64,000 nt of DNA from Moniliella sp. 'wahieum'. Taxonomy: Eukaryota. Positions 1 through 62,108 of this stretch are shown here, in pieces. Each line of letters begins with the position of its first letter. The first letter of the stretch is position 1. The notes beneath the pieces were generated by a model. It saw only the letters and a program-made list of their open reading frames with translations, searched no databases and was not told the DNA's origin. The stretch covers positions 124,001 to 188,000 of the forward strand of contig RSEE01000035.1 of the NCBI GenBank assembly GCA_003971905.1. The letters are read 5' to 3'. The position numbers and the translations under genes were made by a program.

Positions 1-523
1 AATAAGCCATGTAATATCCTTGGCAACGCTTTAGGTACGCAGAAGCGAAACGCTAGAGCAGATCTATTGGACATGCCAACAATCTAGATGGGAGGGGAGA
101 CCCCACCGCATGCGACGTCGCAACACTTGGGCATGGCCAAAACAGCTCGTATGCCAAGCAGTCGGTTGAGGCCTGAGGTCACGTGTGTGTGGTTGCCCCG
201 CAATTAGACAACAAATCTGCAACGTTGCAAGTGAAGCATCATGCATGGCCAGGCGTCGCAATTAATTCCGCTGCCTCTTCCGCCGGGGCCACGCGCTGCT
301 GATGCACAGGGATGCGAGGAGCACTCGAGGCGGGATGGATGCCTCACCAGATCTCTCCAGCCCGCTGCCGCCGCCACCATCGCCACCACCACCACCCCAC
401 CCCATCCCCAGCATGGTACGTCCTGCGTCTCTACCCTCATCCGCCATCGTGTTCTCCATGCTGATCTTCTTGCGTTAGTTCCGTGGCTCTCCTTTCGACC
501 CGTTCAGCGCCCCGCCTCCCGGC

Positions 524-1888
524 ATGGACCGCTTTAATCAGCTGCGTCAGCTCGCCGCTGGCGGGTTTGACTCGCGCTTTGGTGCCCACCCCTCTGCGTT
601 TGACCAGTACTACACGGCGTACAGCATGGCCATGCTTGCTGGTCAAGAGCACCGTGATAATGTTGTCTTTGGAGGCAAGGTCATCCTGCCACCCTCGGCG
701 CTTGCGGAGCTAACTCAGCTCGACATTGAGGGCCCGTGGCTATTTAAGTTGCGCAACCCCAATCCTGCTGTGCCACCAAAGGATACTCTGCCCGTCCGAT
801 GCGACTTCTCCCTCGGGTACCAGCACCCCGGCCGAATCCAGTGCCAGTGCCAGTGGCGTGCGGCGGAGGGCAGCCGTGCGCTACACGCGCGAGAGCTATG
901 CGGGCGTGCTGGAATTTATTGCCGAAGAGGGCAACGTGCACCTTCCCGCATGGCAGATGCGAGCCTTGGGGCTCAACGAAGGTGACCGACTTCGCGTGAC
1001 GGGCACGACGCTTCCCAAGGGCCGACTGGTCAAGATTCAACCGCAAACCGTTGACTTTTTGGAGATTTCCGATCCCAAAGCCGTGCTGGAACAGGCGTTG
1101 CGCAATTACTCAGCCCTTACTCCCGGAGACATTATTGAGTTCAAGTACAATTGCCTCACGTTCGAAGTGCTCACCTCAAGGTCGAACCCGAGGCACCGGC
1201 CATTGCCATTACCGACACAGACTTGGTGGTTGACTTGCTGCGCGAACCGAAAGGGTACGTGGAGCCACCGCTCGGGTGCGCACGCCTCCGCCCACAATGG
1301 CGAGCAAGCTCAAGATTGATACCGAGGCGGCCGATACCATCACGCCCGATGGTTCAGGGGGAACGGGCACGGCGCTGGGGTCAGCAGGCGCCACGCTCTC
1401 GTTTTCAGGGGCCGGGCAGACCTTGTCGGGCCGCAAGCCGCGCAAGTCGAAGAACCGGGATACGGAGCCTGTCGAGCCAAGTGTGGTGCGTCGAACCGAA
1501 CAAACATTGTGACCAACGACACTGCTTGAGGAAAAGAAAATCCCCAAAGCACTTGAGCTGGAGTTTGGGCGACTGTTCTTTGGGTACCCTACATCCCGCC
1601 TGATGCTGGCGAGGGCAACGAACCAGATGAAGCGTTGGAAGGCGAGCGGCGCATCACATTTTCCGGTGTTTGGGCAAACGTTGTCCGGCCGAGCCCGAGG
1701 CCGCTGGAACCGCCTCCCAAGCCTGCCTCGACTACGGCTGCCAGCATCTTCTGCGCCGTTTGAAGGAGAGGCCGAACGAACGTGGGCAGGCGCAACTCGA
1801 CGAAACGCACCGCGCCGGATGCTTCTCACGATGGTGGCAGCGATCGAAACGCAGCCCAACTTACATCGTGTCCGACGACTCGGACTAG
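524..1888 (+). CDS. UFD1: Ubiquitin fusion degradation protein Ufd1 (Cdc48 cofactor); split across frames by apparent indels
   Basis: GGKVILPPSALAELTQL, YAGVLEFIAEEGNVHLPAW, VKIQPQTVDFLEISDPKAVLEQALRNYSALTPGDII, DTDLVVD..EPKGYVEP and SHP-like FSGAGQTL motifs spread over ORFs 524-985, 726-1319, 1151-1603, 1276-1512 and 1670-1888 (acidic end IVSDDSD*). Confidence 0.93.
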
Positions 1889-2894
1889 GCCGGTCTGGCC
1901 TTTGGAATCGCATCGCTCCGACTCTGGTAGTACTGTGTATATACGTGTTGTGTATGTGTAGTGGGATGGGCCTGAGGTGGCTAAACAGAGCGAAGATAGA
2001 TTGCCGCCCGTTCTCCATGATTGCGTCGTTTCCCGTTCCACTTTGACCTGCGTCCTCGTTCGGCTATTTCTCTTTTGTCCTGCACCGCCTTCTTCACGCG
2101 CGTGCATGACTGGGTTGGAGGCTACCACAAACCCAATATCAGAGGAGACGTAATAGCCACGGTCACGCTGGTCGAGTGGTGTAAACTGCAGAGAACCGAG
2201 AGAAGGAGAACGACTGGCACTCCAGATGAGAGCGTACTGACTAATGTAAATGGACCCGGCGCCATTAGCAGCAAGGAAGACACTGGTGGGGCTAAATGCA
2301 CCATACAGCAGTTGCCCGGTTTCCCTCTCGAGACCGACCTTGACAGAAACATCTCACCATCACCAGGCATTTCGCCTTCGAAGTAGGAAAGGAGGATGAA
2401 GAAGAAAAAGTACTATTGGTGTGAGAGGAGGTGAGGGACGCAACGGGTTGCATGTACAAGGTATGTGCGTGGATTCAAGGCAGAGGGGAGGGGCAACAAA
2501 AAAAAGACACAAAAAGGAAAAGGAGGTTCATCACGTTCATCAAATGAGGATCCGTCCAACGGGAGGCGTAACAACAGGTGGGTCCGTTGTGACGGAGACA
2601 AAAATCATCACTTCATCATGTCGACATCCGTCTCATCATCATTATCTCATGCAAAGCAATGCAAGGAGTAAGGGTATAAACAAAAAGGGCAAAGAAGTGG
2701 GAGGCGAAGAGGTATCGGAATCTTGATGTCATCACGCCTCAGGGGCAGTTAACCCCTCCATCTTGAAGGTGGTATAGATAACAAAACAAAAACCGGGTAT
2801 ATACCGATCCCTCTTGGTATTTACAGTAAACTGGCTGCCAGGCTAGCCACGCCCAGTAGAGTCAGGAAGGGGACCGACAACCTCGTGCCGGCGC

Positions 2895-4485: not shown

Positions 4486-5185
4486 TCAATCGGTCCCGCT
4501 GAGAAAAGGAGGGCCACCAGCGGACTCCAATGAGCGCACGTACCTAGGATTTACAGCGACTTGTCGACCATTCGCTCGGACCGTCTCTTTCTTCTCGTCT
4601 CGTGGCAAGGCCTTGCGCATATCTGGGGAACCAAAGACCGGGGTACCGTCAGTCCACTTTCTTGCACCAAGCTAACGACACATGTCACAAGGGGGGGAAA
4701 GCTAGGCACGTACCAAATGCATCCTCATCCGAGTTGCCCTTGCCTCCACCAGAATAATACTCCGTCACAGTGCGGTACACTGAGTAGCCCAACTTTTCGT
4801 AAAAGTTGACCGCTGTTGAATTGGACGGCCTGACGAAGAGATCGACAAAGTAGGCATGGTACACACGGGCACTAATGTCCTCCAGCAGACGCATCATCCG
4901 TTCTGCCAGACCGATCCGACGGTACTCCGGAGCAATGGTGATGGCTGTCACATGGCCGTGCCGTTCCTTGGGCGGAGCGTTGGGGCCATGGTCTACCCCT
5001 TCGCCTTTGCCAATCACGTAGCCCATCGTGCGTCCAGTGGGCGAGCGCTGGATGAAAGACAGATCGGGCCATTGGCTGAGGTAGTGCAGGTAGAAGGAGG
5101 TGTTGTACGTCTCGGTCCAGTTGTCGAGGTTGACATTGTTGAAGGAGAAGAGGTCACGGGCGTGAAAGGAGCAGAGCTGCGACAT
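4486..5185 (-). CDS. NAT3: N-terminal acetyltransferase B catalytic subunit (Naa20/Nat3); introns 4623-4713 and 4499-4543
   Basis: DLFSFNNVNLDNWTETY, HGHVTAITIAPEYRRIGLA, FVDLFVRPSN..A..FYEKLGYSVYRTV..YY, DEDAF|DMRKALPRD; both introns are GTACGT...CAG. Confidence 0.95.
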
Positions 5186-5339
5186 GATGGGGTGGCGGCC
5201 CGGTCGTCCAAGACGAGCTTGTACAAGCAAGGAAGGGCTAGGGAGGGCAAGAGGAGAAGCGCTAGTCGCTTCATGGCGCTCCCAATCGCCCGCCCGACGT
5301 TTCCGCTGCGGCCTATTTCCGCCCCGGCCTTTTTTTTGA

Positions 5340-6609
<1,270 letters not shown>

Positions 6610-6846: not shown

Positions 6847-9567
6847 TTACACTTGAGGGACGAACCGAGTGCGCACCGCCGGTTCATCCGCCACACGCTT
6901 GAGAAGGCAAATGTCCGCCCACTTGCGCGCAAAGGGACCCAAGATCTCCTCTGGAAGGGGAATGAAGAATGCACGACCAAACGCGGCCGCAGCACGCGCA
7001 AACAGGCTGCTTCCCTCGGGGGCGACCGTCGCATCCCGGTCCAGCAGAAAGTCGCATTTGACCGTAGTGAATAGGTCGCGGTGGTCCGATGCGTACTTGG
7101 TCGACGACCCCGAACCGGAGGATGACTTGTTCGCCGGCCCACGGGACGGGATAAAGTCTGTGTCGACAATGTAGTCGCACTCCCACGGCGGAATGGTGCG
7201 GCCCTCCACAGGCTCGTTCAGGGCGTTGGCCAATTCGTCCTGCACTCGCGTCGCAGGGTTGGGCCAATACTGGTCGGCCCGGGCTAGAAGACCGGCAGCC
7301 AACGGGTCTTGCTGGAACGTGGGCCACTCTGGCCATTCTGCTGTTGCTTCGGATTGGGGTGGGAAGTGGCTGGGGAGTTGGTGCTCGTACGAGTTCCACG
7401 TCCATTCGGGCGCAAAGTGCGGCGGAAGCAACCAGCGGCTTGGGTACCGGTGCCACGCATCGCCCCAGCACACAGTACGGCGCGGACCACGAAGCCCATT
7501 CGAGCTTGATGTGTCGTTGACCCGTTCCAGCAGCGCCACCAATACGCGACGCATCTCGCCAGTATACTCTAGGTAGGCCGCCTCGTTGATCGCCTCGAGA
7601 TCGGTAAGGCCATGGAGCTTGGCCACCTCGGCTTGAGAAGGGGGCAACCAGTTCGGTACCTCCACCCCTGCCTCGGCCAACACCGCTTGCGCCTCACTCT
7701 CCCATAGGGGAGCCAGGATGGATTGAGCGCTGTTGTACCCCTTGCGCACGCCCATCACTCGCGAGCAGCTCAACAACGCATACACAGCCAACACACCATA
7801 CGAGAACTTGAGTGTCGGGGTCAACTTTTTGTACCATGGTTTGGGGGCTTCCTCTCCCTCTTCTTCCTTGGTGGGGCGGAGAATGGTGCGCGGCTGCTCA
7901 GGCGGCGCTGGGGAGAGCGATTGCAACAGGGCCGAGACCTTGGGCCAAGCAGCGGAAAAGAGGCGGGAGGCAAACCAGAGACCGACCGCGCCGTTGAAAG
8001 CAAGCAGCGTGTAGATCGGGTACAGGAATCGTTCCTCCTTATGAGCCTGGAGTAGCACCACCACCAACCAAAGGTATGGGCCAGAGAGCCGGATGAGGAG
8101 CACAGCCACAGTACTTCCTCGGCCGCCAGGGGTGGTGTTGACCAAGACCCGGGGAATCAACCAAGCGGCAAGAAGAACAAGGGGAACAGAGCCCAATGCC
8201 AGAGGAAGAAGAATGTTAAAGCCGAGCGCCAAGGTGCGGAGGTAGAAGGAGGCGGGCTCGATGCCGTACAGATTGGGTCCTGCTGCACTCGAGGGCACCG
8301 AAGCCAAACCGGCAGCACTGTGGACGAGGTGCTGGATCAGACTGCCGTACACACCCAGCCAGCGCAAAGGCGACTCGGCATCGGGGGGGAGGGTAGCTAG
8401 GTCGCCCAGAGTGCGATGGAAGAGGTTGTAGAGCACAATGTTGGCTGAACCAAGCGCGGTGCGGCCATAGGCGAGCGTGTCGACAAATGTGGCAGGCACG
8501 ATTACCATGACTGCAGCAAGCAGTCCAACGAGGGTCAACACGAACACCCGCACCAGCGAAGCAGGAACGAATTCGGCCACGTTGTTGCGCGCATAGACGA
8601 GCAGCATGGGACGTAGAACCAACTCTTCTGCCACAAAGGGGAGGATCAAGACCGCAGCAAAAGGCCAACCGAGGATACCACCAATGGCAAAGGCAAAGAC
8701 GACTTTGAGTTGCCGCCCGACACTGCCATTGGCAAACGGCGGGCCATCTGCAGGGCGCAGGAAGGCAGCCCAGGCAAATGTAACAAAATACATAGCATAC
8801 GAAGAGGGTAGCAAGGCTGAGGCAGGGACAGGTCAACAACAGGATCCAGAGATAAGGTGATCAAGAACGACGTACCGGGAGTCGCGTCAAAGAGAGCAGC
8901 ATTGGCAAAGAGGATGACCAGAAGGTACTGGGCCACTCGGTTGCCCAGAATTGCGCGGGTCGATTGGTAGAGGAACCCTTCCCCCAAGGCCGAGAGGAAG
9001 GCAAGGAAGGCGCGGAGTGTAATAAACACGTTCTGGTCGGGCATATCAAAGCCAGCTGCATACGGACGCAGGGGCAGGAATTGGAGCAGGTACGCCCACG
9101 AGCGCAGGGCAAAGTTCGAGTCGTACTCCCATGCCTTGAAAGGAGGCGTGTTGTCCTTTGTATACACCTCCCCACGCATGAGGGCAAAGAGGGGATCCCA
9201 ATAGTTGAGCACCTCGTCGCTATCGGCCAGGACACGGAGCGAAGCACTGGCGATACGAACGATGAGGAGGACCTGAATGGCCCAGTGCAGATCGGGAGCC
9301 CAGACCTTGGCGCCATTGGAGACGGTGTACTCCTCGTCGATGACCAAGGGAAGATAGACAGTGCCCTGCCTGGGCCTCGGCAGCGCGGCGAGCATCGGCC
9401 AGGTCAGCGGCAGCCTTGGCGCGGCCAATGCGCTTGCTCATGTCCCCCGAGCCATAGTCGGCAAACTGCGGGGCCTTCTCTTCCTTGGCCGAGGCCTTGC
9501 CCTTGCCCTTGGCATCGGCAGTGGGAGCTAGCCCGCGCGTATCCGCAGGAGCAGCGGAGGCAGACAT
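6847..9567 (-). CDS. ALG9: Alpha-1,2-mannosyltransferase Alg9 (GT22); intron 8817-8875; frameshift near 9365
   Basis: DSDEVLNYWDPL, AWEYDSNFALRSWAY, ALLPSSYAM, GGILGWPFA, NIVLYN, GPNLYGIEP..FY, QAHKEERFLYPIY, CWGDAWHRYPS, CDYIVD; multiple TM segments. Confidence 0.93.
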
Positions 9568-10380
9568 TTGTGGTGGACCAGCAGCAGCGGGCGGTGCTAG
9601 AAGAGGTGGTGGTGAGGCAGAATCTTCGTGTCCAGCTATGGCACCAGGTCTATCACCAAGTGACGCGAGTGCCTAGTGACGAGTGACTGACTACTGGTGA
9701 CTAGTGACTGCAAGCCAAGGCACCAACCTGGCTACTCGAAGGTCTCACTTTGTCTAGCTGGCATAGTGCATAGGCTGGAATTCCCACCAGCCAGGATCTT
9801 CGTTGCGGCCGAGGCGTGCCAGGGCGTGCCGCGTCAAAATGTGTTGGATGGACTCAGGGCCTCTCCGATCCAAGGCCGCAGAGGGCTTGGGCGCTTGGGG
9901 GCTTCGGCGCTCTTCGGCCTCCTCAGGCCCCAGGCCTCATGGCCTCACGCGCGAGAGGCGTCAGACTGACACGTGAGGCCCACGCGCTTCCTGTTCGCCG
10001 GGTGGTACTTAGTCTTCAAGCTTCAGCTTCATCAATCATTAATCATTCCGCACTTGGCACTTGGTGCCGAACAGCTGGGCGCCGGTACATTGCACGTGGC
10101 ATCGACGTAATACTCCTGACGCGGCAGGACGCGGCTTGCTAAAAAGTTTGTGGGCCTCAGGGGCTTCAGGGCTTCAGGCCGCCTCAGGGTCACACAGGGC
10201 CTCAGCAGGAGGCCTGGCCAGAAACGCGCGCGAACACCAGGACAGACTCTCACTATGCCCCCGTACCAGTACCAACCTCCCAGCTGCGCTACCACGAGCG
10301 TCTCTCCTCTGGTTCCTCTCGCAGATTCTCACAGTTCAGCCTGGGCAGCAGTCAGGCTGACGCGCGGACCAGAGCTCAGC

Positions 10381-10402
10381 TGAGCCTCAGCGCTGAGGCT
10401 CA
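10381..10402. repeat. 22-bp perfect palindrome TGAGCCTCAGCGCTGAGGCTCA
   Basis: Read directly; lies in a CCTCAG/CTGAGG-rich intergenic stretch. Confidence 0.9.
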
Positions 10403-11404
10403 ACAGCGCTGACCGGAGGATCTTGGTCAGCAGACACGACGGATGTGTTGAACGTAGGTTGGGAATGAACGTTGAACGTTGCATGTTGAACTTCAATCTT
10501 CAAGACAGCCTCAATCTTCCAACGCATCGTTCGTCGTCACACGTCACTAGTCACTCTTCGCCGCCCGAACAGCCGCCGAGAATCATTAATCAGCCGTTAA
10601 TCATCCAGCGTCACGCGCGTCACGTGCGTATTATCGCTCCGCACAACGGCACGAAGCAGGACAGATAGGAGACGATGGGCGACGAAAAGTGACTCGTTTT
10701 GCGTACTTAAGTAGGGGGAAATCCCAAGGCTTAACCGGATAAGCCCTCTCCCAGACTTCTGGGCGGGACGTACATTTCCGTGGGGCAAAAATGCGTCCGG
10801 AAGGGTATGAACTAAAAAATGAGCTCCGATAGCGAGAGAGGGGGGACAAACTCTTGACACGTTTCGAAACAGTTGTTGGAAGTGGCGGGTTGGAAGTGGC
10901 GGATAAGCGGGGGACCCCCTCTCCTATCCGTCTGGAAGGGAACGCACGCTGCCGCTGCTCAAAAATGCTTCCGTGCAGCTCGATGCGAAAACTGTTTTTT
11001 GGCCGTTCCCTGTGAAAACGGGGTTTTTTGCAAGTCTTCGTTTGTGCACTTCACCATCCCCACAGCCGGTCGGCCCAGCCTCAGAGACGAGATATAGGCG
11101 GTTTCAGCCCTTGGCGCTTACTATGACCGCCTGCAGACCGTTGCGAAAACTGAACTGTCCAGCTGACCGGGCCGTATTAGGCCCCGTGGCCTCCTCGTCA
11201 GGAAAGAAAAGAATTATAAAATTGAAATCCTGTTTGGGTGCTTTAAATGTTAAACGTTTAAACCATCTCGGGATTGGTTGCGTTCCACTTAGATGTTCTG
11301 CCCCCACCATCGCCTTCTCCCGCACCCCAGCCTTACCCAAAGGGCGGCGTGCCTTGACCTGCACCGCCGTTGCCGTCGTCTTACGCGTCGATCCTTTGGT
11401 GTTA

Positions 11405-12218
11405 ATGAGCGTGGTACGGAGCATTCGCACCACCCTTCGGGGTCCCAGCGACCCGGGCTCAGCACCAGGGAGTTGCGGCTGGCTTGTGCTCGCGTTCACG
11501 CCACCTGATGTGTCATCGTCCATCAAGGCAGAGGACGAAGAAAAAGAAGCGCCCTCTCACCGGGCGGACCAACACGGATTGTTGTGTTACGTATACCGCG
11601 TACACCTTCCGCCTTAAGCCAGATCTGGCGGCCACTGTGGATGGGGACGAGTGGAGGCCGTGTTCGCTACAAGAAGTGTGGCACCCAGGCGGGGTGAAAC
11701 TGACCTTGACCTCCCCTCGCGATGGGGGTGGAGGCACCCTTACTGTGACTAGGAACGGAAAGGATCTTCGACTGACCCTGTTCCCCTTGCGGGAAAGCGA
11801 GGCTGATTCCGAGGCAAGGATGGCAGCTTGGCTCGTAAGTCTTGGTCTTGGTCTTGCTTCCCCCCCCGCGCTCAACTTGGCGAAGCCTACTGCTGACCCT
11901 CTCCACCCCCACCTTGCTTTGCTTTGTTCGTTTTGCTTCAGGAACCAGAAGGAGGCAGTGCTGCGCAGCTGATGAACCAAAAGTTGGCCGAAGCAGGAGC
12001 GTTTACGCAAGACGCGAAGTTTGCTCCAAGGAACTAGCAGTGCCTCTGTCTCGCGCCCAGGTCGTTCGCGCGGAACTTTCAACTCCTCGCTTGCCCCCCC
12101 TCGGCCGGTGCAGCGATCGGTCGAAATTGCCAGTCCGGCTGTCAACCCCCCACAGCCGGATGCCAAGCGACGACGCACTGCAGAGGAGGAGGCTGAACTG
12201 GAAGGCTTTGAAGACTAA
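11405..12218 (+). CDS. Uncharacterised spliced gene (~235 aa), possibly PAXX/XRCC4-superfamily-like; intron 11835-11941; about two indels needed to restore frame
   Basis: Protein-like segments MSVVRSIRTT...LCYVYRVHLPP / KPDLAATVDGDEW...LRLTLFPLRESEADSEARMAAWL / ...LRKTRSLL...AVNPPQPDAKRRRTAEEEAELEGFED*; canonical GTAAGT donor, GCTGAC branch, pyrimidine tract and CAG acceptor. Confidence 0.6.
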
Positions 12219-12426
12219 TCCAGCAGTGTAATAATCGAGAGACTCATCTGATCTGTATCATCCTTACTCTCTCTCTCCTAGTTTCCTCCCCCGCCTATAT
12301 GCTTGTTGCTGTCACTAGGGTTTTCTCTCTTATGTTGCTGCATACCACATGTTGTTTTGTGTTTACCCAAGCCTGAATGATGAGAACTCCAGTCCAGATG
12401 GTCCTCGAGGGTGATGCAATCGCACT

Positions 12427-12471
12427 AGTGGTGGTAGGGGTGGCAGTGGTGGCAGTGGTGGCAGTGGTGGT
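12427..12471. repeat. Short tandem repeat (GTGGTGGCA)n
   Basis: gtggtggtaggg-gtggca-gtggtggca-gtggtggca-gtggtggt. Confidence 0.75.
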
Positions 12472-14557
12472 CCAAGTCAACCAACAACACCTACAGAGGG
12501 ACATCAAGCATCCAGTTGCCACCAGGTGCTGCGGAACAGGGAAAACAGAAGCGACAAAATCCTACTAGTGGGCCTGAGGAGGGAGACTGAGATTAAGAGA
12601 CCTTTTGGCCACACACGACCCATCCGGCGGATCAACGATCAAAACACTGAAGATCTCTCTTCCTATTAACATTTGTGGTGCACGATTTTCTCACACAACT
12701 TCTTACTGATAGTTACTAGCGATACCAAACGAGTGTACAGAACTTACACAACAGCAGCTGCCCTCCCTGTTTTGGAATATGCGCCAATAGCCTGTATACC
12801 CCGTTTTGGAACGGAAGTGGTTGATGTCCCAACAAGAATGGTTTCGGGGTGGTGATTATGGTGCAGGCACACTGCACAGGTATCACGGTTTCTCGCGCAT
12901 CATCATCTCTGTACAACTATCATGGGACTAGCGCAGCTAGAGAGACGCAACGAAGGAGCTTGCCTGCCCTGGAGGAGACACACAGTAGAACTTAAAGAGG
13001 ATGTATGGAAAAGATGGATACTGCAGATGAAGATCGAGACGTGTGCGAGACCGAATCTGCCCTGATTTCAGCTATTGGCGCGGATGGTATGTGTGGTGGT
13101 GTGCACAGAGGCTCTCCATTCCATGTTGCTGTTCGTGGTAGACAAGTAGAGATGAACGATGATCGATGATGTGGGCAAGAAAAGTGCTGACAGCGGCGCA
13201 GAGATGATCGATGAGGGTTTGACGATTGGACCCGCATCACACTTCTGTTTATTAGCACTGAAGTCGTGGTCCGCTGGGGTCGGGATTTGGGGTTACCGGT
13301 TAGGGCGTTGGACGGTGGTTACAGAATCCTAAGCGAAGATCATCGACGATCATGTGCAAAAGAGGGGGGATTGGCCAAACGACTGAGGGGACTGGGCGCG
13401 CAGGAGAGAAGAGGTGCGATGGCGCTCATCGCAATACCATGGCCTCTGATCGGCGCCTTATGGGGTGGGTTTGGCCTGGTGTGTGTGGCTGCGGGAGAAA
13501 ATCCTCTTGTCCGCTAGTCGTACATAGTGGGGGTGGACTGGTGTGGGACGCGGAGCCGACGCCCACCAGTATGCACCAGTGCACCAGAGTACACTAGCAC
13601 CACACCCACCAATATCCAATCCTCTCCTCGTGGCGGCCTGCCACTAGCCACTGGCCTGCCCTGTTGCGGCGGTGGAAAAAAAAAGCAGCCAGCCACGTTG
13701 CCAGCCTGCACACCTGTCTCATTCCGCCCGCGGCCATGCGGGGAACACTGCTGCGCTGCGATCATGCATCATGCGTCACGTGGGCGGGCGGTGGCGGCCA
13801 CAGGCGGGAGGCGCTGGGCTAGCGAAGACCAGCGAGGCTGCTGCCGTGGCCGCTCCGCCAGGGGTGAGTGTCGGGATGTGTCGGGGTCTGTGTCGCAGGC
13901 GGCGGGCGGGTGGCCCAGACGACTTGGGCGTACGCGGGGATGGGTTGGGGGGGGAATAACGCAGTGGCGACTTGATAGGTGCGCCTTGGGGCTTGGGCTT
14001 GGGGCTAGCCAGGTGGGGCGGACACGTGGGGGCACAGGGGCGCTCGAGAGCGGTGGCGCGGGGCGAGCCATGCAGGTGCTGGTCATCGGTCGCATGGCAT
14101 GCATCATGCATGCCACCGAGGAGTACTGACCGGTGACCGGTGAGCATTGCTCAGCGCTCCATCTGATCTGGACGGCAGGCGCCCCAGGGCGCAGCTGCTG
14201 GATCGCTGTTTGTGCGTGGGCTGGCGCAGCACACGCGGGGCAGCACCTGGCAGCGCAGTGGCACGGGAGGGCAGCGCCTGCGTGTGCAGTGGGCGCCCTG
14301 GGAGGCGCATGCTGGGCGCAGAGCAGAGCACTGGCAGAGTCTGGCAGCGCTCACACAGCTCAAAGTGCGCCCTCCCGTCCCTTGCATGCATCATGCATGC
14401 GCACTGCGCCTCAGCGCTCGGCTGCCACGCTTTATCTCGGAGCTCTCCGCACCGTCGGGGCCTCTCTCCTCTGCCCCGCGCCAGTCTTGCTCTGCCTGCA
14501 ATAAAAGATCCCCGCACCGCCCGCGGCTCGCCCCCCCCCCCCATCCCCGCCCTTGCC

Positions 14558-19593: not shown

Positions 19594-19669
19594 GGGGAAA
19601 ACGTTGGACAGTGACAAGAGGAGACGGGGGTTCGGGATGAGGGGATGTGGCGGTGGGCCAAGAGGTGCC

Positions 19670-46875: not shown

Positions 46876-49634
46876 TTACAGATCATCAAAGAAGCCCGCC
46901 TTGGCGCGCTTGGACCCGGTGCCTTCGCCTGCGTCCTCCTCGTCGCTCACCGCGCCCCCGCGCTTCCGCCGCCGCTTTGCCGCCCGTTCCTCCGCCGCCC
47001 AGTCGTCCTCGTCGTCCGAGTCGGACGCATGGGCCGTCTGGGCGCGCGTGGCGCTCTGGGCTGCTCGTTGCGCGTCCTGCGCCGCCGCCTCCTCCGGGTG
47101 CGCCTTGCGCCACGCCCTCTTGGCCGCCTTGAGCGTGCGCCGCTTGAGCTTGATTTCTTGCCGCCGCTTCTTGTCGCTCCAAGCCGCGCCGACCACCACC
47201 GAGGAACCCTCGGCGACCGGCGCGCCCTTCTTGGCTACCTTATTCGCCTCGTCCTCCGCTGCCTTGGCTGCTGCCTCGGCTGCCTTGGCTGCCTTGGCCT
47301 CCAGCTCGCGCTGCCGCTTAGCTTCCTTGGCCGGGTTCTTGTACAGCACAGCATCCATCTCCGCGGGAGAGAGATCGTCAAAGTCGAGATCGGGCGCCTG
47401 GTTGGTCGTATCCAGCGCATCCTTTGCTGTCTCGGGGGAAGGCTCACTGTCTTGTACCGTGGGTGCCTCCTCTTCCTCCTTGGCATTCTTCACGTCCCCT
47501 GCCCCGTTTCCACCATGGGCATCGACAGTCTCCGCCTCGCCGTTGGCCACCTTGGCCGTAGCCGTAGCCTTGGCTGCAGCTGCCAGTTCAGCTCGAGCAG
47601 CAGCTCGCTTGCGCGCTTCTCGTAGCTCCGGCATCGCCGGCAGACGAAGCAAACCGTATGCATGCGCAAGAGCCTGTAAGCGCAAAGCCGGGAGAAAAGG
47701 AACGCAGTCTCGTGCTTGCTGTACGCCCGGACGTAGCTCACGAACGACTTCATGGCCCAGTCGTGCACTTGCCGGTCATCCTTGGCCATCTGTCGTAACC
47801 TTGTGCGAAGTTCCTGTGCATACTCGTCTTCTGCCTCGGGTTCCTTCCCTACAACAGGGACCGAGTCTGGACCGCTCACCCTGCCTGTCAGGTACGGGTA
47901 GGGGTACAACGGGACCCTGCGAACGCGTAAAAACGTAGTGTAGCCTTCCTCTGGCCCACGATGAAGCAGGACCACAGCCCTGCCCGTCCGGCCCGCACGG
48001 GCAGTGCGTCCGACACGATGGGTAAAGGTTGCGGGTTCCAAAGGCGGATCAAACTGCACTACGCACCCAACTCCAGGCAAGTCCAACCCGCGAGCAGCCA
48101 CATCCGTACAGAGCAACACGCAAGGTCCAGAGCGGCCAGTAACGTCACCCCCCGTATCGCCTTCGGCTGGGCCCAGTGCTTCCAAGAGCTCGTCCGACGT
48201 GTCATCGTCCCTTCCGGGGACGCGAGCTTGGGCAAAGTTGTGAAAGACGGCACGGCGGCGAATAGGGCTCTGCTGACCATGCAAGCTAAAGAGCCGGATC
48301 CCTGGTAAGACCTCGGCCCTGGTCAGAGCATGATAAAAGTATTCCACCTGAGCACAGGTGGCAAAGTAGACAATCACCTTGCCTGCCCCACTTGGCCTCA
48401 GGCCACGCTGGTCCGAACTGGATGGGGCAGGTGGGAGTTTGGTTTCAAAAGATAATATGCGAACCAGTTCTGCTAGTCGGTTCTCCTCTCGACAGACCAA
48501 AGCGTAGTTCTCGAGCGTAGAGGGTACTGCAATGGTGGCAGGCTTGTTGTTTGCCGTAGCTTGTTGCTTTGCCGTGGCGGACTTGGCCTGCACCGCGACG
48601 CTGATCCGGGCCGGGTTGCGCATTCCCATAGCAGCCAGACGATTGACAACGGGCGCAATGGTCGCTGAGAACAAAGCCGTACGCCGCTGCGTAGGAAGTG
48701 CATTCATAATCACCTGCAGTGCATCCGCATTCTTCTCGTCCAGCATTCGATCGGCCTCGTCCAGAACGAGGAGCTCCACCCCCTGCGCATGTTTTCCAGG
48801 CCGAGACAAGAGTGCCACGATCCGGCCTGGTGTGCCGATCAACACATCAGGCCGTACATCGCGGTATCGAGACCAATCCTCAGCGGGGGACATGGCCGCA
48901 CCATTTCCACTGCCCGCCGAGCCACCGACAACCAACTGAGCAGTCAAGGGCGGAGTGGACCGCAGGTAGGCCAAATCGGCCTCGGAATCAGCAGGATCTT
49001 CCGAAGGTGCCATACCGCGCCGTATCCGCTCTACATCGGTACGCTCGACATAAGCTGCGGCTTCGTCTTTCCCAAGTTTGCCCTTTCCCTTGTAGGCCTT
49101 GATGGCCGCTTGGATGCGCTTGTTCTTGCGAGCCAAGTACCCAGCCTCGAGTGCCGTGCTCGGATGAGCCTTGAGCACATCGGAAACGACCCCATGGATC
49201 TGTCGAGCAAGCTCACGAGTGGGAGCTACAATGACCGCCATCAAGGACCGGTTCGAGCGGCGCTCCGAGGGAGTAGGCAGGGGGGCAGTCAAGCCAGCTT
49301 CTTCAGACTCCGAGGGAGGAGCCTCTCCATAGAAGGCAGCGCGCTCGCGGATTTCCTCCAGCTTTTCTTTGCGGGAAGCGCTTTCAGCTTCGGCAGCGAC
49401 AGCATGGAGAGATTCTGCTTTCTTGGCCAGAAGCGCAGCAAGAGGCGTAGCAAAGGCGAGCGTCTTGCCGCTGCCCGTAGCCGCCTCGGCAACAATGTCT
49501 TTGCCGCGGAGGAGGAGGGGGACCGCCGATGCCTGGACGGCTGTTGGGACGGGGCCCACAGCGGAGACCAGGTGGTCGGCCAACCAAGCCGGCAAGCCCA
49601 GTCGCTGCCAGGCGTTGTTGTCGGCAGTGCTCAT
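46876..49634 (-). CDS. SPB4: DEAD-box RNA helicase Spb4/DDX55 (60S biogenesis); frameshift near 47690
   Basis: PTAVQA, AEAATGSGKTLAF, APTRELARQI, GTPGR, LDEADRML, QRRTALFSAT, YFATCAQVEYF, TDVAARGLD, HRVGRTARAGR, FVSYVRAYSKHE, LAHAYGLLRLPAMPEL, C-terminal GFFDDL. Confidence 0.94.
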
Positions 49635-49852
49635 CGTGCTGGCGGCAGGTGTCGTCGACAGGACCCAGAGTGGGCTCGCTGCGCTGCCACCCGATGCTAA
49701 AAAATTTAGCGCCGCCGGATCGGTGCAACGCATGGGGCGTCTCGCACCGATTTAGTAGGCCAGCAACAGCGAAGCTGTCCAAGTTTCAACATTTCCACCC
49801 GGCCTTTTTGCACACCCTGATGCCTTGATTTGGCCATAGCCGCCGTTCAGGT

Positions 49853-49888
49853 GGTGGAGGTGGAGGTGGAGGTGGAGGTGGAGGTGGA
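49853..49888. repeat. Microsatellite (GGTGGA)6
   Basis: Read directly in the divergent SPB4/kinase intergenic region. Confidence 0.9.
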
Positions 49889-50431
49889 GGGGGGGGTGCG
49901 CGCTACGCGGGATGGCGTTCGGCGACCGTTGGAAAGCAGGGCGTGTTGGATGGTCGAGGGGGGTTGCCGGTTGCTTGGGGCACTCGCCTGCACCGCAGCA
50001 CCCGCCGGGGGCCCCACATGGCCTCAGCCCCGGTGGGCCAGCTGCAACGTTCAAAAGGATCAGCAGTCGGCCTGCCTGTTTTAAGTTGGATCAGATCAGA
50101 ATAAGCTCGATTAATGGCCACGCCCCTCGGCCCGCCCCGGAGCTCTTCTACACCGAGGCTATAGCCAAGCACCCCCTATTCTGCCTTTCGATTGAAGCTT
50201 CAATCGTGAGCCCCCCTGGCCCAGCTCGGATGATCGATGACGACGCCACCCCGTCTTGTGCTGGTCAGCACGCTCTGCTCCCACCACCGCACCGCCTACT
50301 ATCTGACCACCTCGCACATCGGTCCAGTCCAGCAGGGACAACTCGAGTAGACGAGACCTGCCACCCTCTCACCAGTCCTGTCCGCTCCCAGCTACAGCAT
50401 TCATCCCTCTGTTTCTGCCTCTCCGGGAGAC

Positions 50432-53184: not shown

Positions 53185-54633
53185 ATGGTGCGTGTCAGGG
53201 CGGACACTCCTTTGGCTTCTTGCGGCTGAATGCTCGGGTGAGCAATTTGTGTTGCCTGTATGGCTTTGAGCCTATGCGCATCTGAACACCCTTCTTTCAG
53301 AGCTGTGTTCGCATACAAAAAAATCATCTTTTTGATGCTACCAATCACCATTGCTTCCCAGGAGGATGCGATCTCCCTTTAGCCTACAGTTCCTCACCTT
53401 GCCTTCAGTTTGCGTAGCTCGTAATGTTGGCATTTCAATTTCTTCCGCTTGCGGTTACGAGATGCACTAGGAAGTGGCTGAGGGTGGGAAGCGAACACCT
53501 GATCACTATACTGAGTCCCAAGGTACGTTTGGTGCGTTAATACAGCCACTACGAACAGTCCGAGTAAGTTCCCAGCTTATTAGATTGAACCGCGTACGTC
53601 TCGTATACGATCATCCCGATTGAGGCGAAGAGTGCTGGTCTTTTTCTCGACTACTCGCATTTTCTTGACGCTCTTCCCAGTGAGAGGTTTTCAAAGTCTT
53701 ATCATCCCAGTGGGCTGTGCCCCTCGAATCCGCCTTTGGATGCCGTATTATGCAATCGCATCGCATCCTTCATGTCAGATCAGATCGCCCTTCACAGTAG
53801 CTCCGTCAGTATAGCCTCTCCAGCTGCACACTTCTCCTGAAAAAAATATCCGCCTCCATCAAATTCTGGATCGTTCTTCTCAGGAGATTATGTAGTCGGT
53901 CTGATGGTGCGGAGAGGGACAACTGAAAAAACGTTAACCGGGGTTCAAAAGCGTTTTGACGTCTTCGAGGGGGAACTACTAGATACACCTTTCGGCAGAC
54001 AACCTTCCCCTGTCAGTGAGTCTGAGCGTCCACCCATCTTGGCCATTACCTCTCATCCCTCATCCTCCCAAAAAAAACGCAACGGCGAGCGAAGAAACGA
54101 GAACCTGCCACTGGCATTACTGCAAGAACGTACCGTCTGTTTTGACGTTGCACCCACAATAGCTTCGTCAGTGCGTCGTCAATACTCAATACTCACTCCA
54201 GCCATCAGCCGTACCACACCGCCTCCCATGTACGCGATGCAGGCCCACCGCCCCAAGTACAGCTTGAAAACCACTGGATACCACTTGTTGTAGCACGCGC
54301 CCACGGCCACTAAGGTTCACAATCCTACAACACTACTATCGCTATCGTTTTATACGCAGCGCCCATCGGCTCTCGTTGGATTGCCGTGGGCGCCAGTTTT
54401 CCAAACTTTGATCCGTCATCAATCTAGTCCTACCAGATGCTGGACTGTGGCCAGGCTGGGACAACAGAACAACCCGAACGAAGCGGCCCGTCACGTGCCA
54501 ACGCAGGGAAATACGGCATCGGGCCCACCCCAGGACGAAGGCTTGACCGGACGAGCACGAGAAAAAAAGAGCAAGAAAAAGAGTAGGTGGGGGGGGGGAG
54601 GGGAAGCCTACATCGAAAAAAAAAACACGTCTT

Positions 54634-57149: not shown

Positions 57150-59814
57150 GGTGGTGAACGAGTGTGGGTGTGGAGGAGAAAAGGAAGAGGGACGCAAAGG
57201 AGCGGGCAGCGGTGGGGAGGTGGTGGTGGCGGCGGCAGTGGGGTGGGAGCAATGCTGCGCTGAGCTGAGCCAGCAGTGTGTGGATGCGCCTGCTGCGTGG
57301 CCACACACTGCCCCCGTGCGGGCGGGGCAGGCCGTCGTACGCCGCGCCGGGGTTGGGTGGCTGCGGCGGCGGGTGGTGGTGCGGGGCGGGTGTGGCCTGG
57401 TGCGGCCGCCCAGGGGCAGCCTGCATGCGCTCCGACACGGCGCATCCCCTGCATCCGCACCGCCCCCTGCAGCGCACGCTGGCGCAGTGCGTGCCCGCCG
57501 GTGGCCGCCCTGCCGATCACCGTCCAGGCCCATACCGGCGCCATGCCGGCCGGCGCAACCGCGTCGTGGGCCCACCCCCGCACTGCCGCTGTGCGCGCGG
57601 GTGGCACGGGTGCTGGCATCGGTGGAATGGGGCACGAGGGTAGTGTCACGCTGGCGCGGGCGGCTGCGGCTCCCTCCCGGACCACAGGACGCCGGCTAGC
57701 TACGGCAGCGACTGGCCACTCAGCGTGCCTAAACCTTCGCACTCGCACTGCGTCCCTGCCCTCAGCCCCACCTGCTGGGGCTGAGCTGAGCGCGTTTGAT
57801 CCGATGCATGATGAACTGCAGCGCGGATCGGTTGTGCATGCCACACTGCTTCCGATCGCAGTGACAGTGTTCGTCGTGACATTGACACGTAACGCGCGTG
57901 ACGCCGGACGGCACGTGACGCGTCGCGATGGTCGAGAAAGAGCGTGGGCACAGCGCATTTCTCTCCATCCAGACCAGATATAGATGCCTGGCCAAAGAAT
58001 GGGGGCACCTTATTACTACTACTGGCCCCTTTCAGACACCCTCCCGTCCTCCCCTCCATTGGTACCAACCCAAACGGAGGCGTGACATGCGGTGCACGTC
58101 TTTTGTCTCGCAGTAAAACGCACTGTATTACCAGAGTATGCATGGCTATTCTTTGGTGGGTCCAGAAGCGAGTTCGCATCGCAAACGGCAGCACCGCTGG
58201 GCCTCCAAACAGCATCACCCCACGTATCCAACAACAGCAACTGACACATCGCCCCTCTCCCATCACAACAGCACCACCAAAAGTCCCCGTGTATCTCTTG
58301 TGGGCGAAGGTGCCAAGAATCCTTGGTTCGCCTCCCGCTTCGTCCGGGTGAAACAGAGATGATGTCCTCTCCATCGGCGAAGCGAGCCACGAACTGTAAG
58401 GCCGGAGAAACCCAAGGATTTGGGTGGAGAACCTCTGGAAATGTGTAGAGCAATGCTGTCGCGATGGTGGTGGTTGCGGTTGAGGGTTAAGTTGAGGTCT
58501 AAGCAGTCTGTCACACCTAGAGGAGACAGGGGTTTGAACAAGCCAGAGCATACGCCTAGAGGCTTCGGAGGTCAAATAAGGGGCAGAGGATGATCATAAG
58601 GCGCCTTGGCCTACATACAGGATCGCGGGTCCCAACACCATCACGACAGTCATCAGCTTATTGGCCCGGTAAAAAGGATCCGTCGTTGCCCTTCGAGAGC
58701 ATCATACATCCCCCTGTGCTCAGTGGGGAAAGAAAAGTAAAGTGCCCTGCAGTGAGATTCACGTTCTCGCTTGAAAGGTAAGGGCCCACAGGCTGTGATG
58801 TGTGGCATTCAGCTATTATGCCACACATTCGCAGGTGCGCCACCGGCAGGAAGCGTCAGAATTTGGTGAGGCAATAGCGAACGTGGTGGGCCCAAGCGGC
58901 ACGAAAATAAAAGGAGAGTCTGCTCTGGGTATGACGTGGTCTCCGCCCAGCGGCAGCAGATTGTTGTTTTGCGGCACACCTGTTCTTTGCTGTACAAACC
59001 CAGGCAGAACCGCCTTATTGTGGTCCTCCAGAGTGGGTCAGACGTATTGAAGAGCCAGGTTCATTTCGACATGATAGAAGGGGGAACAGTGTAGTGCTTA
59101 TAGCACGAGGGCTTCTGCCCCAGCCTCAAGTAGCGGCAGAGACGACATAAAACCTGTCGGGCGAGTTCAACAAACAAGTGAGTGAACGGTCAGAACAGCA
59201 TATGTGAGAGCAGTCGCAAACTTAGTACCATCACCGTTCCTTTTCGTTGCACCTATATTATAGCAAGTGAGCCAAGTGGGAGCTGGCTGGTATACACTAC
59301 TGCACCTCTCCGCCATGGTGTTGTATAGTGGTGTTGTGATGCTGAGGGTTGGCTACCTCGGGACGGTCGCGGGGAACAGTGGATTGAAGGGATCGCACTA
59401 GCTCGCCAGTGAGTTCCCTATACACCGCACGAGCACATTTATACTACCTTCCTTTGCACAAACTGCAATGCATAATGTGTTCCCTCCTTCTTGCTCTCTC
59501 ATCCCGAAGGCATCCAGACTCCCATTCCACTGGATCTCTCTTAACAGTAATCAGGCTCAATATTCCGTGCGGGGAACAGGACCGCTGCTCCAAGACGGCA
59601 GCGCAGCCGTCGCCAACGACCTGCGATCTGGCAATGCATCGGCCCCCCGATGGGCACTAGAAGGTCAGGTCCCGTGTTGTGCACGGCAAGTCGGTGTAGG
59701 GTGGTATTAGGCCGAGTCCTTAAGGGATTGAATCGGGCGGTTGTCCGGTAGTCGACAAGTATGAAGGTGTACTGTTGGGGCAAAGAAGAACGTCATATGA
59801 GACTGGCTCAACGC

Positions 59815-60529
59815 CTACCCCTCGACGTTCTTGATGTTTTCCGACGAAGTCTCGAGTTTGGCCTGGTTGAATTCTTGTGAGGTAGGCAGGTCGACATGCA
59901 CTTTGTTCGCGACGGCAATGTGGATAGTAACGTTTTCCGCCTTCAGGTCGAGCACGTGGCCGCCGGCGTCGCGCTGGTCCGTGATAAAGTGCAGGTGTTG
60001 ACCAGCAACGGAGAATCCCTGCCAGGAGAGCGGGGAACGGAACCCGACAACCGTGCCGTGTTGGTCGGACAAGCTCATGATCTTCTGGGTCTTGTGTACC
60101 TCTACCAGTGGCTGACCGTGGTACTCTTGACCACAAAGGGACCGCACTTGCAGATGAGGGTAGTGCCCGCCTTCAAAGCGGTAGGAAACAAACAGGTTGT
60201 CTTGCCCGGGCACGGCCGTCCAGGATGGCATCCAAGTCGGCCTTAGAGGCCAATGTCACGCCACGTAGGGTGGTTTGGGCTTCAAAGTGGGTGGCCATGA
60301 CAAAGGGGATGGTCTCCTCGGGACCTGCCACGCGCACCGACCCATCATACAACAGCTGATACACCGCCCCGTCCAACAAGACCAGCTCCCCGCGCATGCG
60401 GGAAAAGGTTCCGAGGCCTTGATTGCCGTGCTGGATCACAGCGGAAACAGTGGTGCCCTGCTCAACGACGCCAGCCATGAGCGCGTTGATCAGACTGAAT
60501 TGGTACACCTCGTTAGGCACAGCAGTCAT
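59815..60529 (-). CDS. Alpha-acetolactate decarboxylase (AlsD/BudA family); intronless; one frameshift near 60200-60230
   Basis: VYQFSLINALMAG, HGNQGLGTF..RGELVLLDG..YQ, PFVM.THF, NLFVS, VRS, GTVVGFRSP, Zn-binding VAGQHLHFI...GGHVLD, terminal E in IKNVEG*. Confidence 0.92.
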
Positions 60530-62108
60530 CGTGAAGGCCACGCACGGAGGAAGGGGGGGGGGGGGGTGAGGCTAAGGGATGGGGATGGGGAGAAGGGCAG
60601 GGTGGGGGTCACAACCAAAGATGGTGCGGCATGGGGGAGAGCTGATGCGCTGATGCGCGTCTTGGCTCTTGACGCAGCTGCCGGAGGCCCTGAGGCCCTG
60701 AGGCCTGATGGCGAGCACAATAGGGCAGAAATGCCCAGATGAAGGTGGCCGAAAAGCCACCCACGTCAGTAGTGCTCGGTCAGCGGATGGGATGTGTCAG
60801 CGCATCGGCTTCATCGATCTGGGTCATCGATCATCGACTTGAACAGGGCCGCTGCATTCAGCACAGGGCGTCAGTCGTGCTGGGCACTGCGCTGAGGCTG
60901 AGGGCGAGGAGGTTTTGTGGTGGTCATATCACCCCGGCGGGCTCTGGCGATCTGGCGGCCCTCGAGAGTTCGAAGTCACTAGTCAAACGCGGCCGCGGCG
61001 ATTCTTGATTCAGGCTCGGGCGGAATGAAATGAATGTTTTCCCAGCTGAAATCTGAGATCTGAACTAAAGCCCGAGAGAAGCTGCAACATTGCAACGGAA
61101 ACAGAACCCAACGCATCGAATCGAGTTTTGAGCTTTGCCCATCATATGCAGAAAAGGCCACCATGATGTTGCGTCAGGTGTTCAAGACGGACTATACTGT
61201 TTTTGCATTTGTATGTGTTGGTAGCCGTGCTGCTGTGTTGGTTGTGTTGCATGGTGAGCCATAGAAGGGTGGCTCTTGCGTTTGGCCAAAACATCTGCGG
61301 CCGCGAGGCTCTGCTGTCTTCGCGCTTCTGTCGTCGTTATCATGATCTTTCCCCAGCAACCATCAGGCCTGCCAATGGCGAGACTGTTGCTGCCTAAACT
61401 ATTAATTTTGATGTAAGGAAGGGAGTGACAGTCAGTTGCAGCTGCGTATATGCGTGGATCGTCATCAAGACCCGTTAAAGGGGTCCAAGTATTCTGGGGT
61501 AGTATATGAAATCCTTGGTCGGTCTGGTAAAGCGGCAGAGAAGGCACGGGGTGTGTAGGCAAGATTCAGTCGTGTTAAGCTGCGCGACAGCCAAACAATA
61601 AAGCTACCGACAATAGCACGGTACTGTGGTGGTGCTCAGAGGGGGTAGTAGCACGCGCCCCGTTGCCCCGGCACTAACGCCACTGCGGTTAGGCAAGACA
61701 GTGTGCCGATGCGTAGCGTGGACAGCAAAGTCGCGGTGATAAGGGATTGCATACAAAAAGTACGCTACTTCTACTTCATGAGGAGAAGGATGCCATCCAG
61801 GTGGGCTTCGAAGTGTGCGCCGAGGAAGGTAGGCATAGGGGGCCGGAGGAGCTCACAGCGAGGCCGGCTTCCTTCGGTTGCTTACCAAACCTCTAGGAAC
61901 ACTGCATCCGAAGTGCGCGCGCATGGAACGTCATCCACAAAAATACGAGGACAGCTGCTCCCGCTTAATTGGATGCCGGTAAAGCACCATGGTTCGCTGA
62001 GGTGTTGGCGGATGCCTAATTTCTTGCGAGCAGCCCAACGGAGAAAAGATACCACGCACGACCGGATTGACACAGGCTGTAGAGTGCTCGGGCGCGACAC
62101 TTGATGCA

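Follow-up and report, generated by a model that had tools for sequence, protein, structure and literature searches.

Recurring TGA-palindrome-TGA motifs as probable transposon excision footprints in non-coding DNA of Moniliella sp. 'wahieum'

The 10-nt motif TGA-N4-TGA (TCA-N4-TCA on the other strand), with a 4-nt spacer that is its own reverse complement, recurs in a 64,000-nucleotide stretch of the genome of Moniliella sp. 'wahieum' (GenBank assembly GCA_003971905.1, contig RSEE01000035.1, positions 124,001 to 188,000 of the forward strand; 58.6% G+C), here called the window. We suspect, with a probability of about 0.7, that the recurring motif represents footprints left in non-coding DNA by the excision of cut-and-paste transposons. 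In this scenario, the 10-mer is most likely the commonest form of a footprint that combines a 7-bp target-site duplication with hairpin-derived P nucleotides, that is, junction nucleotides that are the reverse complement of the adjacent flank. The motif probably records mutational history, and a regulatory signal is unlikely. Read in this way, the scar is of a kind already known, but the variant is unfamiliar and the density unusual.

The observation of 10-mers with palindromic spacers is real and very strong. In an exhaustive scan of the window, 27 of the 54 occurrences of TGA-N4-TGA or TCA-N4-TCA have a palindromic spacer, a huge enrichment over non-palindromic ones, and these sites use 11 of the 16 possible palindromic tetramers. 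Markov simulations of order 3 give 1.0 +/- 1.2 such sites for the whole window (20 simulations); for the non-coding-like part alone, the expectation is 0.84 +/- 0.98 at order 3 and 2.1 +/- 1.3 at order 5 (100 simulations each). The first-pass annotation of this DNA had listed 26 sites with 10 of the 16 spacers, and had put the chance expectation at about 1 to 2, close to the simulated value of about 1. Each of the 26 coordinates and spacers proved correct on rescanning, and the tally fell short by a single site, at 17483, with the spacer TATA.

To separate coding from non-coding DNA, we used a mask of 36,011 coding-like bases built from Pfam hits and codon statistics, the remaining 27,989 bases being non-coding-like. 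The mask is only approximate because the codon-usage gene finder, trained on Pfam-supported open reading frames (ORFs), performed weakly. All 27 palindromic sites lie outside the mask, which bears out the earlier claim that they avoid coding sequence, and none of the four TGA-N4-TGA occurrences in coding-like bases has a palindromic spacer.

The window has no general excess of palindromes: it holds 73 perfect 10-mer palindromes, with about 68 expected, which rules out generic palindrome enrichment as the cause. Among near-palindromes, the class mismatched at position 2/9 is the sole one raised (219 vs about 185). Within it, T-S-A accounts for 27 and T-W-A for 7, no other class exceeds 8, and the A-N-T, C-N-G and G-N-C classes are at background level. 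When other flanking triplets are compared, TGA/TCA is raised, TTA/TAA is raised more weakly, and no others are, so that only T-N-A types stand out. Palindromic spacers of 2, 6 or 8 nt occur at chance level, and the enrichment is limited to the 4-nt spacer. The spacing of TSA pairs on the same strand of non-coding-like DNA peaks accordingly at a gap of 4 (50 vs 11.9 +/- 3.5), with lesser excesses at gaps 3, 6, 8 and 11, as predicted from the variants and arrays described below. Even among the 27 non-palindromic spacers, 21 retain one of the two complementary pairs (about 11 expected); since many of these adjoin perfect sites, they look like decayed or variant copies. None of the outcomes that the first-pass annotation had named as refuting its observation was seen.

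Beyond the 10-mer, the scar consists of two copies of a 7-bp word, nnT[N]Ann, and the junction between them is filled by the reverse complement of the adjacent flank. After tandem pairs are merged, 25 independent sites can be compared. Period-7 identity extends by at least 2 nt on one side only in 19 of them, on both sides in 3 and on neither side in 3, extension on the one side and on the other being anticorrelated (Fisher p = 0.017). Of the 19 one-sided sites, 13 extend by exactly 2 nt, which gives a run of 12 nt. Because the extension is one-sided and mostly exactly 2 nt, the unit is a 12-mer and not a 14-nt tandem duplication: a 5-mer, T-N-A-N1-N2, is followed by N2'-N1' and then by the 5-mer again, or the mirror image of this. 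A single 7-bp tandem duplication or slippage event needs a run of at least 14 nt, and most sites were thus not made in that way. The rule is confined to T-N-A words. Among all 5-mer direct repeats with period 7, the 2 nt between the copies complement the flank for 36 of the 54 words that start with T-N-A and for 19 of the 374 that do not, the latter being chance level (Fisher p = 3.5e-25).

An unbiased listing of every perfect nnTNAnn 7-mer direct repeat in the window leads to the same structure. Seven loci carry no insert. Where the insert is 1 nt, it is the complement of the adjacent base in 4 of 4 cases, and where it is 2 nt, it is the reverse complement of the adjacent 2 nt in 3 of 3. The lone 4-nt insert, at 22105-22122 (GTTGAACGTACGTTGAAC), is templated from both sides: its first half is the reverse complement of the final 2 nt of the left copy, and its second half that of the initial 2 nt of the right copy. 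A lone 5-nt insert is not of the P type; it belongs to a 12-bp repeat that is possibly coding. Altogether, 15 loci have target copies that abut or are separated by inserts of 1, 2 or 4 nt, and these inserts are the reverse complement of the flank, as in excision footprints. Exact 14-nt doublings of a 7-mer at 10034-10047 (site 10036) and 29768-29781 fix the phase of the word, since both place T-S-A exactly at its centre (TCA in each case). The doubled 7-mer at 29768-29781 has no P nucleotides and its arms are non-palindromic, which indicates that the palindrome arises at the junction and is not inherent in the duplicated word. Other doubled 7-mers are found at 19947-19960 (site 19949), with palindromic arms, and at 29604-29617 (site 29606).

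The number of P nucleotides and the number of nucleotides missing from a copy (trim) vary. Compared with 40 order-3 Markov simulations, with both strands counted and symmetric cases counted twice, the observed and simulated numbers are 29 and 0.07 for P2/trim2, 17 and 0.15 for P1/trim1, 10 and 0.2 for P0/trim0, 6 and 0 for P2/trim1, 5 and 0 for P2/trim0, and 6 and 0 for P1/trim0. Trimming of 0, 1 and 2 nt is therefore in each case far above simulation. At periods 8, 9 and 11, the variants preserve templating by the flank but not the spacing, and words centred on T-A-A and T-T-A follow the same junction rules as those centred on T-S-A.

The commonest form, a full 7-bp copy, 2 P nucleotides and a copy lacking 2 nt, is represented at 165-178 (class A, P2/trim2, L0/R2; holding site 167), 10542-10555 (site 10544), 13760-13773 (13762), 17481-17494 (17483, the site added by the exhaustive scan), 20767-20780 (20769), 46710-46723 (46712) and 60822-60835 (60824). 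Its mirror class occurs at 10014-10027 (class B, P2/trim2; site 10016), 10581-10594 (10583), 13158-13171 (13160), 13203-13216 (13205), 46825-46838 (46827), 50229-50242 (50231), 60974-60987 (60976) and 61052-61065 (61054). Single nucleotides are added and trimmed at 12630-12643. Two 7-mers flank 1 P nucleotide, at period 8, at 10164-10178, 21059-21073 and 60641-60655, and they flank 2 P nucleotides at 2526-2541 (16 nt at period 9, which is not an 18-nt tandem duplication), at 10609-10624 (also period 9) and at 33213-33228, where the run is 18 nt and a 9-bp tandem duplication is equally possible. Footprints with 2 P nucleotides and 1 nt trimmed from the other copy (period 8) lie at 17463-17477, 19969-19983 and, centred on T-A-A, 11249-11263. 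A T-A-A-centred P2/trim2 footprint is present at 17705-17718 and a T-T-A-centred one at 13291-13304; the T-T-A-centred example at 46696-46709 is of the mirror class and lies at the edge of the coding-like mask, and a T-T-A-centred 12-mer of the same form closes the window (63989-64000).

Compound loci accompany these simple ones. Two footprints overlap at 14125-14145 (sites 14127 and 14134), giving three TGA at period 7, and two follow each other at 60689-60710 (site 60699), the first with P1 and the second with P2. A degenerate period-7 array at 9668-9709 ends in a P2/trim2 footprint (site 9698), and the P2/trim2 footprint at 10464-10491 (site 10466) runs on as a short period-7 array. Further arrays have 4.7 units at 29529-29561 (sites 29538 and 29545), three T-T-A-centred units or footprints at 31118-31138, a T-T-A-centred 7-mer with non-palindromic arms at 17161-17192, and 2.4 units of a TGA-containing 7-mer, also with non-palindromic arms, at 54179-54195. 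Two sites, 20007-20016 (site 20007) and 27345-27354 (site 27345), consist of the 10-mer core only, with no 2-nt extension on either side.

Target duplication, loop-free junction nucleotides templated by the flank, and variable nibbling together point to excision footprints of a transposase that forms hairpins on the flanks. The steps that follow are reconstructed from the sequence products. A cut-and-paste DNA transposon would insert at nnT[N]Ann and duplicate 7 bp (t1 t2 T N A t6 t7). On excision, by analogy with known flank-hairpin transposases, each flank end would be sealed as a hairpin exactly at the border between element and flank. A host nuclease of the Artemis/Pso2 type would open each hairpin, usually 2 nt beyond the tip, to leave a self-complementary 4-nt 3' overhang, and end joining would ligate the overhang on one side to the recessed strand on the opposite side. 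The product seen in the sequence is a full copy, the reverse complement of its last 2 nt and a copy minus its first 2 nt, or the mirror of this. It reads T-N-A N1N2 N2'N1' T-N-A N1N2, with an arbitrary palindromic spacer and an equal middle base in both triplets.

This scheme would also accommodate the variants. If both hairpins were opened on the 3' side, at a distance of k nt from the tip, the left top strand would gain k P nucleotides and the right would lose k; given that 7 + k + (7 - k) = 14 nt, the period would stay 7 whatever the P number. With k = 2 or 3, the TGA-palindrome-TGA motif would result; with k = 1, only the inner spacer pair would be complementary, as at 12630 and at sites of the 29768 type; and with k of at least 4, the second triplet would become the complement, giving TGA-X-TCA. 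TGA-X-TCA sites number 5 in the window (0.7 expected), and 3 of the 5 have the predicted one-sided 2-nt extension. Alternative opening or trimming would yield the variants at periods 8, 9 and 11 as well as 7-mers that are simply doubled, and the short period-7 arrays could be built by renewed hits on the target that each event restores, possibly with some help from slippage. Scars would persist only where an additional 7 bp is tolerated, that is, outside coding sequence.

One of the two readings offered by the first-pass annotation, a mutational process restricted to promoters, was right in kind and wrong in mechanism and scope. Its proposed routes, slippage or template switching, do not agree with runs that are typically 12 nt and thus shorter than 14, the events need a T-N-A centre, and they also occur outside promoters. 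In a related explanation, a microsatellite of 7-bp units that are themselves odd palindromes (nnTSAnn) expands by slippage while hairpins stabilise the slipped strands. Tandem Repeats Finder (TRF) lists 18 period-7 arrays of up to 4 to 6 copies, most of whose units are odd palindromes, and 7-mer odd palindromes with a TGA/TCA centre are in excess (155 vs 110 +/- 9.5), as this explanation would have it. We nevertheless consider it unlikely. Most runs are 12 nt, below one 7-bp duplication, and 13 of the 19 one-sided sites are of this kind. Slippage gives no reason for enrichment of T-N-A only, with A-N-T, C-N-G and G-N-C at background, and although it should act on any unit sequence, 15 of the 18 TRF arrays contain T-N-A as read by eye. 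It predicts neither inserts of 1, 2 and 4 nt that are templated by the flank and separate perfect 7-mers nor doubled 7-mers with non-palindromic arms (29768, 17161), and single-strand folding of 10 sites was in all 10 cases no better than that of shuffled sequences (z from -1.6 to +1.9). Hairpin or cruciform structure as such was rejected as well, given the same folding result and the merely mild rise of TGA/TCA-centred palindromes with arms of at least 3 (38 vs 27.7).

Less probable again is the possibility that the breaks are driven by the host, with a domesticated transposase or nuclease making staggered, hairpin-forming breaks at T-N-A in open chromatin. Yeasts have domesticated nucleases, derived from hAT elements or MULEs, whose breaks are hairpin-capped; the scars lie very densely, and neither an element nor a transposase was found in the window. 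That absence carries little weight because 64 kb is too small a window. From the chemistry of transposition, a doubled 7-bp word would normally need insertion between staggered nicks followed by gap filling, whereas a break alone would re-anneal or delete.

We give marginally less credence still to a cis-regulatory element, in which one or more proteins would bind promoter TGA direct repeats 7 bp apart and favour a symmetric spacer shape. This is close to the other earlier proposal, a protein reading TGA half-sites together with the symmetry of the spacer. The half-sites and the main spacing are fixed, the sites are all non-coding, many of them are 100 to 1000 bp upstream of start codons, they cluster (10 loci in 9696-10624 and 7 in 60641-61065), and two 21-nt CTAG-type arrays are near-identical inverted copies of each other. 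The clustering near promoters and the inverted pair are the reason why this explanation keeps a little weight. However, the spacer takes 11 forms and is tied to the flank, through the one-sided 2-nt extension, and not to the TGA triplets; its sequence is arbitrary, yet in every case it is the reverse complement of the flank beside it. Length variants (periods 8, 9 and 11; inserts of 1, 2 and 4 nt) obey the arithmetic of P tracts and not a fixed spacing, and the T-A-A and T-T-A versions share the rule. Motif orientation is mixed within single intergenic regions, and some sites lie between convergent 3' ends. The protein-reading proposal is not supported.

It is hardly conceivable that the motif is a stop-codon barrier in which TGA at period 7 puts stops into successive transcript frames: TGA clusters on one strand and 7 is coprime to 3, but TAG-X-TAG is not enriched (1 of 10 palindromic), most sites have just two TGA and so cover two frames, the strand that carries TGA is not consistently related to the genes nearby, and the palindromic spacers and flank-templated inserts are left unexplained. 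An origin of TGA from CGA/TCG by CpG deamination or a process like repeat-induced point mutation was rejected by reasoning, as it yields no direct repeats.

Returning to excision footprints, those of Ac/Ds, other hAT elements, Transib/RAG and Muta1 are like the scars in the window in that two copies of the duplication are kept, with flank-templated palindromic additions and variable trimming. hAT elements normally make 8-bp duplications in which T is the second base and A the seventh (nTnnnnAn), Transib/RAG duplications are 5 bp, and those of MULEs are usually 8 to 11 bp; in the window the duplication measures 7 bp, T being its third base and A its fifth. According to the available sections of one report, flank hairpins are formed by hAT, Transib, RAG1 and the MULE Muta1, Artemis-like host nucleases are the proposed openers, the Muta1 hairpin contains both flank strands in full, and Muta1 excision is mostly precise (PMC5499845). 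The accessible part of a second describes Ac/Ds footprints in Candida albicans and budding yeast as short deletions and P-nucleotide palindromes, implicates Pso2 in their formation and finds P-tract length to be host-dependent (PMC5873905). Short P tracts dominate for Ds in Candida albicans, as they do in the window, and canonical hAT footprints centre on the complement of the base beside the element, as far as this part of the report describes them (PMC5873905). The palindromes of Ac/Ds are odd, whereas those in the window are even, with even P tracts in 30 of the 67 sites examined. Even palindromes point to a hairpin sealed precisely at the border of the element, as for RAG/Transib and apparently for Muta1. 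One site, 29970-29983, fits the canonical (Ac-like) hAT footprint exactly, in that both junction-adjacent bases are complemented between two TCA-centred copies; the fit may be real or due to chance, about 0.26 such sites being expected among 67.

Duplications of 7 bp are known elsewhere. Galileo/1360, of the P superfamily in Drosophila, makes 7-bp duplications at a palindromic target consensus, and differs from the window scars in its animal lineage and in the centre of its consensus; after P-type excision the ends carry long 3' overhangs instead of flank hairpins. Kyakuja elements have CA..TG termini and no inverted repeats. PIF/Harbinger elements insert into a short palindrome centred on T-N-A, as in the window target. 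In fungi, the available portion of PMC12730594 reports 7-bp target-site duplications for the basidiomycete hAT7 (Pucciniales) and for Kyakuja (Agaricomycotina). This duplication length is common to the window scars, whose source appears Ustilaginomycotina-like, and the two groups are reported from other subphyla. Neither a target consensus nor footprints nor duplication sequences for hAT7 or Kyakuja appear in the searched text and supplementary file of PMC12730594. The same text gives a PIF/Harbinger duplication of 3 bp (PMC12730594), compared with 7 bp here, and excision of these elements is largely precise according to the part of PMC4561436 available.

Three related models were rejected. 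A PIF/Harbinger-type 3-bp TWA duplication is at odds with the 7-bp duplication and with adjacent TSA-TSA pairs (gap 0), which are not enriched in non-coding-like DNA (24 vs 22.1). A Transib-like 5-bp duplication with 2 P nucleotides does not account for the doubling of whole 7-mers; P tracts on the TSA side were not seen, and the spacers NNCA and TCNN that this model would give make up 2 and 1 of the 27 non-palindromic spacers. Footprints made of transposon end nucleotides (a 3-bp duplication with 2+2 terminal nucleotides) would need many families to supply 11 spacers.

Several observations weigh against excision footprints. Pfam scans of the 262 ORFs of the window found no transposase or reverse transcriptase domain, and of 706 pairs of TNA-centred 7-mers, none encloses inverted termini matching at 9 or more of 12 positions, as an unexcised element in the window would. 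The palindromes are even, with both t7 and its complement present, and the odd signature of canonical hAT elements is seen on the left at 5, on the right at 2 and on both sides at 1 of 67 sites, about 4 being expected by chance. We know of no characterised superfamily that combines a 7-bp duplication with a T-N-A centre and with hairpins formed precisely at the border. The density is about 42 loci per about 28 kb of non-coding-like DNA, and we know of no described footprint record with a density near this. Spacer use is uneven, CTAG and TCGA each accounting for 5 of 25, and arrays of 4 to 6 units require repeated hits or extra slippage. Finally, the CTAG-type TGA arrays at 9667-9687 and 10536-10556, 21 nt long and 848 nt apart, are identical in inverted orientation at 19 of 21 positions, which is too similar for independent scars to explain. 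An inverted-repeat scan found no matching 7-bp duplication at the outer borders of this pair; inverted duplication, gene conversion, or a real element or cis-site is possible.

Along the window, 41 of the 42 strong loci lie outside the coding-like mask and 1 lies on its edge. Another 11 loci are weak (period 5 or 6, deletion-type), with a chance expectation that is not negligible, and 5 of these are inside the mask. Strong loci cluster at 9696-10624, 13158-14145, 17161-17718, 19947-21073, 29536-29781 and 60641-61065. Such clustering would fit insertion into accessible chromatin, local re-insertion and the duplication of the target by each scar. The description of the sites as mostly upstream of genes holds in part: loci are found upstream of genes, in divergent promoters (27345, 50229) and between tandem genes (46696-46838), and also between convergent 3' ends (17161-17718, 33213). 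Few or no loci occur in the non-coding-like stretches 27800-29500, 58594-59814 and 61100-63900, some of which may be unrecognised genes.

The region from 9570 to 14160 (about 4.5 kb) has no Pfam-supported gene, weak coding statistics and 17 strong loci; a long stretch of regulatory DNA, a rapidly evolving gene and a non-coding transcript are possible readings of it. Long perfect palindromes lie near clusters at 10377-10398 (22 nt), 20026-20040 (15 nt) and 50189-50206 (18 nt), and two odd palindromes of nearly alike sequence, with a TCA centre, are at 14096-14116 (21 nt) and 14385-14401 (17 nt). The long palindromes near clusters could be footprints with long P tracts, like those of Ds in budding yeast, or something else. 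G-rich low-complexity tracts of the GGTGG/GGTGGA type are present on the plus strand at 20224-20290, 43981-44047, 46413-46470 and 49848-49908, with C-rich counterparts at 361-410; some of these tracts are intergenic and adjoin footprint clusters.

The Pfam content of the window is that of ordinary eukaryotic genes, and tRNA and Rfam scans of the window gave no matches. Gene models are approximate. They include UFD1 (479-1316, plus strand), a GNAT acetyltransferase with a TRM8-like methyltransferase (4685-6422), an ALG9-like mannosyltransferase (6847-9568, minus strand), an aminotransferase (17994-19668, minus strand), an aldehyde dehydrogenase (31376-32990, plus strand), a DEAD-box helicase (46876-49751, minus strand) and an alpha-acetolactate decarboxylase (59815-60571, minus strand), as well as a glyoxalase, a 60S acidic ribosomal protein, a Pex24-like protein, DUF1168, RAMP4, a FYVE/RING protein, a kinase and RPS20. 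The very long Hobbit/FMP27 gene (34583 to about 43400, minus strand) breaks up upstream of 38126 into numerous short ORFs whose frame keeps changing, and its Pfam pieces follow one another in the correct order; many small introns, frameshifts or assembly indels could be responsible.

Two of the genes have a possible bacterial connection. The nearest named relatives of the aldehyde dehydrogenase are in Tilletiaria anomala (71% identity), Pseudozyma flocculosa (70%) and Testicularia cyperi (69%), which points to a Ustilaginomycotina-like basidiomycete as the source, one for which the searched database has no near relative with a name. Ustilaginomycotina matches at 61-75% identity are followed by actinobacterial enzymes (Kineococcus and others, about 57-61%), and fungi outside Ustilaginomycotina do not appear in the match list, which suggests that the gene entered this fungal group from bacteria long ago. 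Alpha-acetolactate decarboxylase is typically a bacterial enzyme, and a horizontal acquisition is possible. Its reading frame is divided between two overlapping frames, probably by a single short intron.

In the literature, which we covered incompletely, no paper contained two or more of six motif strings, and we found no description of palindromic repeats in Ustilaginomycotina, of 7-bp duplications or of a genome-scale footprint record that matches the pattern. It is conceivable, although we would stop short of calling it probable, that a very active hairpin-forming transposon or a domesticated derivative, matching no characterised superfamily, has been a leading source of intergenic insertions in this Ustilaginomycotina lineage. 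In that case, non-coding DNA would carry about one recognisable scar per 700 bp and promoter sequence would be continually rewritten. Were the rate in the window to hold genome-wide, there would be some ten thousand scars, by order of magnitude, although few transposons would otherwise be expected in this genome.

The interest of the motif is moderate to high if it is viewed as a mutational phenomenon, and low if it is viewed as a candidate for a regulatory code. If excision footprints are the correct explanation, what seems to be a regulatory code would be a dense fossil record of transposon insertion and excision, and motif-discovery pipelines may mistake such footprints for strongly enriched 'palindromic direct repeat' motifs. 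The scars would reveal the target rule (nnTNAnn) and duplication length (7 bp) of an unseen element, and the manner in which the host opens hairpins (mostly at 2 nt). They would also constitute a large, sequence-specific class of +7 bp insertions in promoters and elsewhere between genes, with a bearing on models of indel mutation and cis-regulatory turnover in fungi.

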